Shown here: positions 6,728 through 59,930 of the stretch, one piece after another | How the letters are laid out: every line of letters starts with the position of its first letter | How positions within the stretch are numbered: the stretch's first letter is position 1 | Source: Escherichia phage JK1 | Sequence record: MZ436830.1 | Reading direction: 5' to 3' (one strand) | DNA length: 64,000 nucleotides | Notes under the pieces: generated by a model | Databases searched by the model: none | What the model was told of the DNA's origin: nothing | What the model saw: the letters and a program-made list of their open reading frames with translations, nothing else | Program-made: the position numbers and the translations under genes

Positions 6728-6742
6728 TCTTTGACGATTTAA

Positions 6743-6765
6743 GGGACCTTCGGGTCCCTTTAGTT
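6743..6765 (+). terminator. Rho-independent terminator after gene 23
   Basis: GGGACC-TTCG-GGTCCC hairpin followed by a T-rich tract. Confidence 0.7.
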
Positions 6766-11135: not shown

Positions 11136-11816
11136 TTATTTTAATGTTACGAAAGAAGAATTACGTGTTTCACGAATTAGAACTGATCCGTCGCGATTAA
11201 TGTAATAAATTAAGCTAAATAAAGTTTGGTGCGCCGACGCGTGTTCAAAACTAGTTGGGTGAGATTTCCAATCCGGAGTTTCAGCAATCCACTGGTAAAT
11301 CCACCAAGGAACAGTGCAGAATCCTGGATTTTTTCCAATCAGCTGAAGATTCGGACTAAAGTTTTCCGGAAGAGTAAATACAGACGGCTTTTCAGATTCA
11401 ATAATCTCAGCTACAGCCTGCTCAAATTTTTCTTCAACAAAAGGAGTATCTTCAATCAAAACATCGGTATTTTCAGGAATTTTATCCGTTTCTACTACTT
11501 CAATTTTAATGTCAGATTTAACCGGAGAATCAATCAGAAGTGCTGCCTCTGGATTGACTTCTTCATCGTCATATTTTAATCCGTCTGCAGCATCAGCAGC
11601 ATCAATTAAGTCTTTAATAGATAACCCATCAGTCTCTGGCATAGGTTCACTAGCGAGCTTCTGGAGGGCTTCTTCAATATCATTAACGATATTATCAAAA
11701 GATTTATTCTTTTTGACCTTTATACCAAACTGTTCAGCATATTCAGCTAATTTAGCTTTAGCTTCTTTATTATCATCAAGAGCCTTCAGCTCTGCAATAT
11801 AATCTTTATCTATCAT
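11136..11816 (-). CDS. inh: Inh, inhibitor of prohead protease
   Basis: 226 aa ORF, same length as recalled T4 Inh; position between hoc and uvsW. Confidence 0.8.
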   Translation of the reverse strand: MIDKDYIAELKALDDNKEAKAKLAEYAEQFGIKVKKNKSFDNIVNDIEEALQKLASEPMPETDGLSIKDLIDAADAADGLKYDDEEVNPEAALLIDSPVKSDIKIEVVETDKIPENTDVLIEDTPFVEEKFEQAVAEIIESEKPSVFTLPENFSPNLQLIGKNPGFCTVPWWIYQWIAETPDWKSHPTSFEHASAHQTLFSLIYYINRDGSVLIRETRNSSFVTLK

Positions 11817-11829
11817 AATATTTCCTCAG

Positions 11830-11837
11830 TATAAATA
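11830..11837 (+). promoter_or_regulatory. Late promoter TATAAATA (uvsW)
   Basis: Exact motif 30 nt upstream of uvsW ATG in the inh/uvsW divergent region. Confidence 0.55.
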
Positions 11838-11866
11838 TAGATATATTTATTACATGGTATTTAGAC

Positions 11867-13378
11867 ATGACTGACATTAAAGTACATTTTTATGATTTTA
11901 GTCACGTGAGAATTGATTGTGAAGAAAGTACATTTCATGAACTCCGTGATTTCTTTAGCTTTGAAGCTGATGGGTATCGTTTTAATCCGAAGTACAAATA
12001 TGGCCACTGGGATGGACGAATCCGTCTTTTAGATTATAATCGCCTTCTTCCATTCGGTTTAGTCGGGCAAATTAAAAAGTTCTGCGATAACTTTGGCTAT
12101 AAAGCCTGGATTGACCCACAGATTAACGAAAAAGAAGAATTATCAAGAAAAGATTTTGATGAATGGCTTTCTAAATTAGAAATCTATTCAGGAAATAAAA
12201 GAATTGAACCGCATTGGTATCAAAAAGATGCAGTGTTCGAAGGATTAGTTAATCGTCGTAGAATTCTTAATCTTCCAACATCCGCAGGTAAATCTTTAAT
12301 TCAAGCTTTGCTTGCTCGGTATTATTTGGAAAATTATGAAGGCAAAATTCTTATCATTGTTCCAACAACTGCTCTGACAACTCAGATGGCTGATGACTTT
12401 GTTGACTATCGTTTATTCAGTCATGCAATGATAAAGAAAATCGGCGGTGGAGCATCAAAAGATGATAAATATAAAAATGATGCACCAGTCGTTGTTGGTA
12501 CATGGCAAACTGTAGTAAAACAACCGAAAGAATGGTTCTCACAGTTTGGAATGATGATGAATGATGAATGCCATCTTGCTACAGGAAAAAGTATTTCATC
12601 TATCATATCAGGTTTAAATAACTGTATGTTTAAATTTGGTTTGTCTGGTTCATTACGTGATGGCAAAGCTAATATCATGCAGTATGTTGGAATGTTTGGT
12701 GAAATATTTAAGCCAGTAACGACTTCTAAATTAATGGAAGATGGACAAGTAACTGAGTTAAAAATTAATAGTATTTTTCTTCGCTATCCAGATGAGTTCA
12801 CTACTAAATTAAAGGGAAAAACTTACCAAGAAGAAATAAAAATTATTACTGGACTCAGTAAAAGAAATAAATGGATCGCTAAATTAGCTATTAAGCTTGC
12901 GCAAAAAGATGAAAACGCTTTTGTCATGTTTAAACACGTATCGCACGGTAAAGCTATTTTCGATTTAATTAAAAATGAATACGATAAAGTTTATTACGTA
13001 TCAGGGGAAGTTGATACCGAAACCCGCAATATAATGAAAACCTTAGCTGAAAATGGTAAAGGAATAATTATAGTAGCTAGTTATGGTGTATTTTCTACTG
13101 GTATTTCAGTTAAAAATCTGCATCACGTTGTTTTAGCGCACGGTGTTAAATCAAAAATCATTGTATTACAAACAATCGGTCGTGTATTACGTAAGCATGG
13201 TTCTAAGACAATAGCAACCGTCTGGGACCTCATAGATGATTGTGGCGTTAAGCCAAAATCTGCTAATACGAAAAAGAAATATGTTCATTTGAACTATCTT
13301 TTAAAACACGGCATTGATCGTATTCAGCGCTATGCAGATGAAAAATTTAATTACGTAATGAAAACAGTTAATTTATAA
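11867..13378 (+). CDS. uvsW: UvsW DNA/RNA helicase (SF2)
   Basis: 503 aa ORF with helicase motifs (PTSAGKS Walker A, DECH box); late promoter at 11830-11837. Confidence 0.9.
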   Translation: MTDIKVHFYDFSHVRIDCEESTFHELRDFFSFEADGYRFNPKYKYGHWDGRIRLLDYNRLLPFGLVGQIKKFCDNFGYKAWIDPQINEKEELSRKDFDEWLSKLEIYSGNKRIEPHWYQKDAVFEGLVNRRRILNLPTSAGKSLIQALLARYYLENYEGKILIIVPTTALTTQMADDFVDYRLFSHAMIKKIGGGASKDDKYKNDAPVVVGTWQTVVKQPKEWFSQFGMMMNDECHLATGKSISSIISGLNNCMFKFGLSGSLRDGKANIMQYVGMFGEIFKPVTTSKLMEDGQVTELKINSIFLRYPDEFTTKLKGKTYQEEIKIITGLSKRNKWIAKLAIKLAQKDENAFVMFKHVSHGKAIFDLIKNEYDKVYYVSGEVDTETRNIMKTLAENGKGIIIVASYGVFSTGISVKNLHHVVLAHGVKSKIIVLQTIGRVLRKHGSKTIATVWDLIDDCGVKPKSANTKKKYVHLNYLLKHGIDRIQRYADEKFNYVMKTVNL

Positions 13379-13403
13379 GGGCTTCGGCCCTTTGGAGAAA
13401 AAG

Positions 13404-13634
13404 ATGTTACTAGAATTTAAACAATTTCTTTATGAAGCTTCTATTGATGAATTTATGGGTAAAATTGCCTCTTGTCAAACATTAGAAGGTTTAGAAGAAC
13501 TTGAAGCTTATTATAAGAAAAGAGTTAAAGAAACTGAATTAAAAGATACTGATGACATCTCAGTCAGAGATGCTTTGGCAGGAAAAAGAGCTGAATTAGA
13601 AGATTCAGACGATGAAGTAGAAGAAAGCTTTTAA
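13404..13634 (+). CDS. uvsW.1: UvsW.1 small protein (possibly the C-terminal part of a longer UvsW)
   Basis: ORF track starts at TTG 13392; ATG 13404 with GGAG at 13394-13397 gives 76 aa; in the +1 frame relative to uvsW, separated by a GGGC-TTCG-GCCC hairpin. Confidence 0.75.
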   Translation: MLLEFKQFLYEASIDEFMGKIASCQTLEGLEELEAYYKKRVKETELKDTDDISVRDALAGKRAELEDSDDEVEESF

Positions 13635-13643
13635 ATTAAAAAA

Positions 13644-13666
13644 GGCCCAACCAAAAAGGAAGGGCC
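13644..13666 (-). terminator. Weak terminator candidate after the small zinc-ribbon ORF (minus strand)
   Basis: GGCCC/GGGCC 5-bp stem with a 13-nt loop, followed on the minus strand by a U-run. Confidence 0.3.
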
Positions 13667-13689
13667 AAAACTATAGACTAAAGGTCACA

Positions 13690-55231: not shown

Positions 55232-55236
55232 ATTGA

Positions 55237-55260
55237 GGGAGCCTTCGGGTTCCCTTTTTC
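55237..55260 (+). terminator. Terminator after gene 35
   Basis: GGGAGCC-TTCG-GGTTCCC hairpin followed by TTTTTCTTT. Confidence 0.7.
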
Positions 55261-59904: not shown

Positions 59905-59930
59905 AGAGGGCTTCGGCCCTCTAAGGATTT
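59905..59930 (+). terminator. Hairpin after gene 37 (weak terminator or stability element)
   Basis: AGAGGGC-TTCG-GCCCTCT hairpin; the T-run starts only after AAGGA, which doubles as the gene 38 SD. Confidence 0.4.

Follow-up and report, generated by a model that had tools for sequence, protein, structure and literature searches.

We read uvsW and uvsW.1 of Escherichia phage JK1 as two distinct cistrons that share a late transcript, and we put the probability of this reading at about 0.93. The window, by which we mean the whole stretch of 64,000 nucleotides analysed here (sequence record MZ436830.1), carries the two open reading frames one behind the other, and the original prediction had left open whether they are two genuine genes, one gene interrupted by a sequencing frameshift or a recoding site. 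The first of these readings is correct: hundreds of independent genomes, every distant relative examined, solved structures and the literature agree on two genuine genes, and nothing contradicts them. Indeed, the separate status of the two genes has been known since 2004-2007, and we regard it as settled that their boundary is ordinary operon punctuation of the T4 type. The elements that make up the locus are as follows:

11830-11837, plus strand: T4-type late promoter consensus, TATAAATA, 30 nt 5′ of the uvsW ATG
11867-13378, plus strand: uvsW, a complete open reading frame for an SF2 helicase of 503 aa, with its own TAA at 13376-13378
13377-13392, plus strand: C(UUCG)G hairpin, AAGGGC-UUCG-GCCCUU, 6 bp, with the core GGGC/GCCC at 13379-13390, GGGCTTCGGCCC
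13394-13397, plus strand: Shine-Dalgarno sequence GGAG, 6 nt 5′ of the uvsW.1 ATG (GGAG-N6-AUG, 13394-13406)
13404-13634, plus strand: uvsW.1, ATG at 13404-13406, 76 aa, its frame being +1 with respect to uvsW

The inspection of the open reading frames confirmed the geometry first described for this junction. The uvsW gene ends at TAA 13376-13378, and the +1 frame, which is that of uvsW.1, has a TGA at 13359-13361 and is hence open from 13362. The predicted initiation site downstream of the hairpin is also in place, with GGAG at 13394-13397 and ATG at 13404-13406, and one database record carries a ribosome_binding_site annotation at the position of the GGAG.

The uvsW product matches the Pfam families UvsW_N (3.9e-43), ResIII, DEAD and Helicase_C, and its residues 3-503 align to the 510-residue chain of PDB 2OCA, which is UvsW and ends at residue 502. 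The uvsW.1 product matches the UvsW.1 domain, PF11637, with 105.5 bits against a gathering cut-off of 25 (E 1.5e-30), and it is identical over 76 of 76 residues to PDB 2JPN, a protein whose structure was determined on its own. The C-terminal tail of UvsW.1 is acidic and its last residue is F. The homologues of UvsW.1 are small stand-alone proteins that share 29 invariant columns, and a word-seeded search for them returned 75 matches of 52-96 aa. UvsW.1 is said to bind UvsW and to modulate its annealing activity, in work attributed to Nelson & Benkovic 2007 and Kerr et al. 2007. The T4 genes themselves were redefined in 2004-2007 (Nolan et al. 2006; reportedly also Sickmier et al. 2004 and Kerr et al. 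2007), and the locus of the window is the same as T4 uvsW and uvsW.1 so redefined, UvsW corresponding end to end to 2OCA and UvsW.1 to 2JPN. Two features nonetheless distinguish the window from the T4 reference strain, namely the absence of segE between inh and uvsW and one extra N-terminal residue in UvsW.

With respect to transcription, the transcript that carries both genes likely starts at the late promoter at 11830-11837. A motif scan of the region found no late promoter motif between uvsW and uvsW.1, and a σ70-type scan returned only weak plus-strand matches, which lie inside uvsW, leaving uvsW.1 with no intergenic promoter of its own. In a published data set, uvsW is classed as a late RNA and a late protein (PMC9697503).

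We then compared the orthologous junctions, as the original prediction had proposed. Using the UvsW.1 profile, 67 loci were collected from IMG/VR, 66 of which have an analysable junction, and they represent diverse T4-like phages. In 66/66 analysable loci the two genes are kept apart by a stop codon, and in all 66 uvsW.1 lies directly 3′ of uvsW with its own start, in the same arrangement; uvsW always comes first, and uvsW.1 has its own Shine-Dalgarno sequence and ATG everywhere among these related loci. The length and content of the junction vary: the stop and start overlap (ATGA, GTGA, TAAATG and similar) in 24/66 loci, a spacer of 1-10 nt with the Shine-Dalgarno sequence on or beside the stop is found in 29/66, a 25-nt CUUCGG spacer of the T4 and RB69 types in 5/66, spacers of 43-66 nt with unrelated hairpins in 7/66, and a 352-nt spacer with an extra open reading frame in 1/66. 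All three frame relations between uvsW and uvsW.1 occur among the 66 loci, in-frame stops included. The other Straboviridae with ATGA, TAAATG or GTGA junctions have the same two genes in the same order and always split, while the T4 and RB69 types have, instead of the overlap, a 25-nt spacer, a hairpin and an independent Shine-Dalgarno sequence.

Closer relatives are equally informative. In RB69 and the Mosigvirus group (151 records), the hairpin is kept and the junction reads CCCTTAGGAG; the Shine-Dalgarno sequence is improved to AGGAG at the same place, and the spacer contains a TAG in the uvsW.1 frame. Because of this TAG, neither a single-base event nor a +1 shift could fuse the two genes in the RB69 type, as read from its sequence. 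Moreover, some Tequatroviruses carry an open reading frame for a 230-aa HNH homing endonuclease between uvsW and uvsW.1, and in these the homology to the window resumes at 13361. Match coverage suggests that about 49 of the 498 phage records matching the junction have this insert.

A fused UvsW-UvsW.1 was also sought among proteins. When 1.84 billion representative proteins were scanned exhaustively with HMMER, none of helicase length carried a C-terminal UvsW.1 domain, and the word-seeded search likewise found no natural fusion. The scan recovered 35 proteins with the domain, most of them of 40-145 aa; 12 of the 35 are 260-301 aa long and have the domain at the N-terminal end in a different genomic context. 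An 821-aa match to the domain was discarded as spurious, being a plant PPR protein.

The most conspicuous element of the boundary is the hairpin. The spacer of 25 nt between the two genes contains the AAGGGC-UUCG-GCCCUU stem-loop, and while the hairpin as first delimited, at 13379-13390, holds as the core, folding adds two A-U pairs, so that the full stem reaches 13377-13392 and takes in the last two bases of the uvsW stop codon. The 23-nt hairpin element has a predicted energy of -9.3 kcal/mol as RNA (z -2.3) and of -5.9 as DNA (z -3.4). A fold of 150 nt keeps the tetraloop hairpin as the sole element of its centroid, and wider RNA structure at the junction was not detected, folds of 66 and 150 nt being no better than shuffles (z -0.93 and +0.51). 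The stem can be lengthened weakly, by way of G-U pairs, to take in the GGA of the Shine-Dalgarno sequence. The hairpin is invariant between Tequatrovirus and Mosigvirus while the neighbouring synonymous sites differ, a pattern that argues for selection acting on the structure; covariation was not seen across the T4 and RB69 groups, whose stems show no variants.

The hairpin at the end of uvsW is more than a chance occurrence. The 10-mer GGCTTCGGCC has four exact copies in the window and, with at most one mismatch, five occurrences against 0.88 ± 0.88 in shuffles; CTTCGG itself is present in 30 copies, where shuffles give 14.9 ± 3.6, an enrichment of about two-fold. Outside long sense open reading frames, the window has eight CUUCGG hairpins whose stems measure 6-10 bp, and seven of the eight have a sense-strand stop codon no more than 13 nt away; a ninth lies inside an open reading frame. 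The layout of stop, hairpin, Shine-Dalgarno sequence and ATG seen at the end of uvsW recurs at two of these hairpins:

59905-59922, plus strand: hairpin with the stop-hairpin-SD-ATG layout, 3′ of the open reading frame of a 1312-aa tail-fibre protein
30418-30399, minus strand: hairpin with the stop-hairpin-SD-ATG layout, between two small open reading frames

Other CUUCGG hairpins of the window are followed by T-runs, stand before late-promoter motifs and look like terminators. Intercistronic C(UUCG)G hairpins of T4 were reportedly described by Tuerk et al. 1988. Judged by its sequence, the hairpin at the uvsW end belongs to this known class, with which it shares the CUUCGG loop, the C-G closing pair, a G+C-rich stem, location on the sense strand and a position right after a stop codon. 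It differs in being short (6 bp, against 7-10 bp in most others of the window), in having no U-run and in overlapping the stop codon itself. The CUUCGG hairpin as such was discovered in T4 mRNA (Hall 2015, PMC4371310).

The same hairpin offers an account of how a single long UvsW came to be annotated in T4. According to the original prediction, T4 UvsW has been treated both as 503 aa plus a 76-aa UvsW.1 and as a longer fused protein, and the records agree. In NC_000866.4, which is identical to AF158101.6, a uvsW of 587 aa is annotated, together with a note on sequence discrepancies for the stretch. This legacy T4 sequence has ...AATTTA-ATAAGCTTCGGCCC... in place of the ...AATTTATAAGGGCTTCGGCCC... 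of the window, TTATAAGGGCTTCGGCCC standing opposite TTA-ATAAGCTTCGGCCC; it is 1 nt shorter than the window, and the positions that differ coincide with the 5′ arm of the hairpin. Computed as DNA, the legacy version fails to fold, with -0.5 kcal/mol compared with -5.9 kcal/mol for the window. The loss of one base and a misread 5′ arm are typical of gel compression, which makes the hairpin the likely cause of the fused UvsW; the 587-aa fusion itself is an old sequencing error. The comparison also supplies a neat instance of a highly stable CUUCGG hairpin as the probable source of a compression during sequencing. The predicted junction peptide of this reference-error fusion is ...TVNLISFGPLEK. 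As for the suggestion that one base change would fuse the genes of the window into a protein of about 587 aa, a single-base deletion would indeed do so, but the product here would have 588 aa; the figure of 587 aa is that of T4, because the T4 UvsW is one residue shorter.

The converse explanation, in which the true gene is a single uvsW of ~588 aa and the TAA of the window is an artefact of one extra base, draws on this RefSeq entry, in which the junction is one base shorter and the annotation is still in omics use. It is refuted for practical purposes, its probability being close to nil. The 61-nt junction of the window is 100% identical in 475/652 matching phage records, independently sequenced and T2 included. 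Over 86 nt, 379 records show at least 99% identity to the window, among them the resequenced T4 genomes (T4T HM137666, OZ209023, OZ209057), which are identical to it over this length. By contrast, the legacy T4 entry is alone: the fused version is confined to AF158101.6 and NC_000866.4 (2/498 matching phage records), was not found in any IMG/VR contig, and destroys a hairpin that is otherwise invariant. Resequencing of T4 was reported to confirm the two open reading frames, uvsW and uvsW.1 are split in all five T4-like genomes analysed in that study, and T4 UvsW as crystallised lacks the UvsW.1 part (Nolan et al. 2006, PMC1524935). The in-frame TAG of the RB69 type and the lack of a fused relative or database protein in the surveys described above point in the same direction. 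The idea of a sequencing frameshift thus applies to the legacy T4 record only; the sequence of the window is right, and the fusion is the artefact. Programmed recoding, which would give a minor UvsW-UvsW.1 fusion from the correct sequence, is very improbable. It could take the form of a +1 shift near UUA-UAA (one example of the junction peptide being ...TVNYKGFGPLEK) or of a hop like that of T4 gene 60. In the latter, which we find scarcely credible, a small fraction of ribosomes would carry peptidyl-tRNA-Leu from UUA (13373-13375) over the UAA and the hairpin to UUG (13392-13394) in the uvsW.1 frame, with a predicted fusion of 582 aa and the junction peptide ...TVNLEKK. If true, the gene 60 bypass would have a short-range counterpart, the second such element of the same phage. 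The outlines are alike: directly after a sense codon comes a stop that is part of a C(UUCG)G hairpin (the AA of UAA being in the stem), as in the gene 60 take-off site, GGA UAG CC-UUCG-GG CUAUC, and a near-cognate Leu codon, UUG, a candidate landing codon, stands in the downstream frame 3′ of the hairpin. The details, however, differ, since the distance is 16 nt at uvsW against 50, the uvsW take-off codon lies outside the stem, uvsW.1 has its own Shine-Dalgarno sequence and ATG, and the take-off and landing geometry is not conserved in relatives. In the RB69 types the UUA is out of frame and the TAG stands in frame in the spacer, in the HNH-insert carriers the junction stands behind a different open reading frame, and in other genera overlaps or unrelated spacers occur in all three frames, so that neither the frame relation nor the spacer is conserved. 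Moreover, in AAU UUA UAA G re-pairing in the +1 frame fails both for UUA (to UAU) and for AAU (to AUU), so that a slippery codon is lacking, inspection of the sequence revealed no SD-like stimulator upstream, and the crystallised T4 UvsW stops short of the UvsW.1 part. The combination of a stop and a CUUCGG hairpin is not peculiar to this site but generic in the genome, and by a hand estimate an in-frame UUR would turn up among about five spacer codons roughly 10-20% of the time. Given this generic layout, these odds, the loss of the geometry in RB69 types and HNH carriers and the presence of an independent Shine-Dalgarno sequence and ATG, we rate the likeness to gene 60 as a coincidence, and the proposal of a recoding site is not supported.

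A different question is whether the hairpin acts mainly on transcription, as an attenuator or partial intrinsic terminator lowering the transcription of uvsW.1 relative to uvsW. Three unrelated lineages with long spacers do have a terminator-like hairpin with a T-rich tail right after the uvsW stop, and T-runs follow several other CUUCGG hairpins of the window. The stem at the uvsW end, however, is followed by UUU only. With no U-tract and no call by the terminator scan, we rejected an intrinsic (rho-independent) terminator at this position. Furthermore, uvsW.1 has no intergenic promoter of its own, and strong termination would silence a conserved gene; the genes overlap in many relatives, which implies that they are co-transcribed. 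A role as partial attenuator is thus the weaker alternative to a stability or coupling element, and we consider it unlikely.

We therefore return to two separately initiated cistrons and propose the following course of events. Both genes would be read from one late transcript. Ribosomes translating uvsW would terminate at the genuine TAA at 13376-13378, and uvsW.1 would be initiated from its own ribosome binding site. The hairpin might serve as an element of mRNA folding or stability, for instance as a barrier to 3′ exonucleases or as an insulator that holds the downstream Shine-Dalgarno sequence in a defined context. Since the hairpin, whose end lies 2 nt ahead of the Shine-Dalgarno sequence, starts within the stop codon, the terminating ribosome would have to melt it, and this may help to couple the initiation of uvsW.1 to the translation of uvsW. 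In many other genera, the same coupling is apparently achieved by the ATGA and TAAATG overlaps (24/66 junctions).

What matters in practice is curation. The T4 reference annotation remains incorrect and continues to spread: the 587-aa fusion, supported by no other sequenced phage, is still present in NC_000866.4 / AF158101.6, where the stretch to be corrected into uvsW and uvsW.1 is 114,180-114,200, and in the P20703 entry used with this reference. Current transcriptome and proteome studies quantify against the fused T4 reference, and UvsW.1 is consequently invisible in such data sets. In the supplements of one of them (PMC9697503), reads and peptides are assigned to the fused reference annotation, and the separate products are not distinguishable there.

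A minor variation of the junction was seen in Shigella phage SF2-1, which has an extra A in the A-run between the Shine-Dalgarno sequence and the ATG. The run was considered as a hot spot for frame changes and rejected as such, both open reading frames being intact in this phage.

The reference annotation of T4 in RefSeq and GenBank still carries a superseded, fused uvsW of 587 aa (NC_000866.4, 112677-114440; 1678-3441 in our comparison locus L001). A transcriptome and proteome study of T4 published in 2022 (PMC9697503) was mapped to this fused reference and reported a single UvsW; UvsW.1 was thus unmeasured there. Among the related phages, Shigella phage SF2-1 (PQ571308.1) has one additional A in the A-run between the Shine-Dalgarno sequence and the uvsW.1 ATG (window 13398-13402). 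Its spacer between uvsW and uvsW.1 is therefore 26 nt long, which changes the frame relation while both ORFs remain intact. Either a true polymorphism or a read error in the homopolymer could account for the additional A.

The junction also accommodates larger insertions. In some Tequatroviruses, an ORF of 230 aa encoding an HNH homing endonuclease lies between uvsW and uvsW.1 (1783-2475 in the carrier locus L002), with an insertion point corresponding to window 13360/13361. The resident uvsW 3′ end of this carrier has diverged to ...KEVKL*, and the final codons of the HNH ORF recreate ...KTVNL*, after which the hairpin follows. Judging from match coverage, the insert may be present in about 49 of 498 records. 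In another lineage, the two genes are separated by a 352-nt insert (L048, 2149-2500) holding an extra small ORF that appears hydrophobic by eye. On the other side of uvsW, the T4 reference has the homing endonuclease gene segE between inh and uvsW, whereas the corresponding interval of the window (11817-11866) is devoid of segE; the phage behind the window is therefore T4-like but distinct from the T4 reference strain. The upstream neighbour of uvsW in the window is:

11136-11816, minus strand, inh

Terminator-like hairpins with a T-rich tail were found immediately 3′ of the uvsW stop in unrelated T4-like lineages with long spacers:

L028, 2463-2480, terminator-like hairpin after the uvsW stop
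L043, 2456-2474, terminator-like hairpin after the uvsW stop
L044, 2437-2457, terminator-like hairpin after the uvsW stop

Since these lineages are unrelated, a hairpin after uvsW seems to recur independently. Within the window, eight further strong C(UUCG)G hairpins have stems of 6-10 bp:

6741-6760, plus strand
9703-9686, minus strand
24320-24305, minus strand, inside an ORF
26500-26477, minus strand
30418-30399, minus strand
31336-31315, minus strand
55235-55256, plus strand
59905-59922, plus strand

Nearly all have a sense-strand stop codon just 5′, and two of the eight repeat the stop, hairpin, Shine-Dalgarno and ATG layout of the uvsW/uvsW.1 junction. Several have T-runs and sit upstream of TATAAATA motifs. 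Downstream of uvsW.1 (window 13637-13672), GGCCC (13645-49) and GGGCC (13662-66), flanked by A-runs, are located where, according to Nolan et al. 2006 (PMC1524935), uvsW.1 and the convergent gene uvsY.-2 are separated by a bidirectional terminator that is conserved. No terminator was called at 13637-13672 by a simple scan because the loop is 12 nt long.

The C-terminus of UvsW.1 is a conserved acidic stretch (residues ~63-76, window 13590-13631; ...EESF), in which E74 and the terminal phenylalanine F76 are invariant in 19 sequences; it is reminiscent of the tails at the C-terminus of SSB proteins. Some distant T4-like phages from metagenomes have proteins of 260-301 aa with the UvsW.1 domain as their N-terminal part, encoded at:

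L076, 727-1632
L077, 5001-5864
L078, 1779-2642

In all three loci, a DUF6267 gene lies directly upstream and uvsW is not adjacent; the L077 gene is near uvsX and a DnaB-type helicase gene. The remainder of one of these proteins gave a weak cytidylyltransferase-like match, below threshold.

Finally, two records matching the junction are doubtful. The 32-kb record of Staphylococcus phage SAJK-IND (MG010123.1) matches the T4-type junction at 61/61 positions and, on this match, is probably contaminated or mislabelled. In Escherichia phage ZCEC14 (OP168898.1), the junction is annotated as 'terminase large subunit' and 'portal protein', which looks like a shifted annotation.
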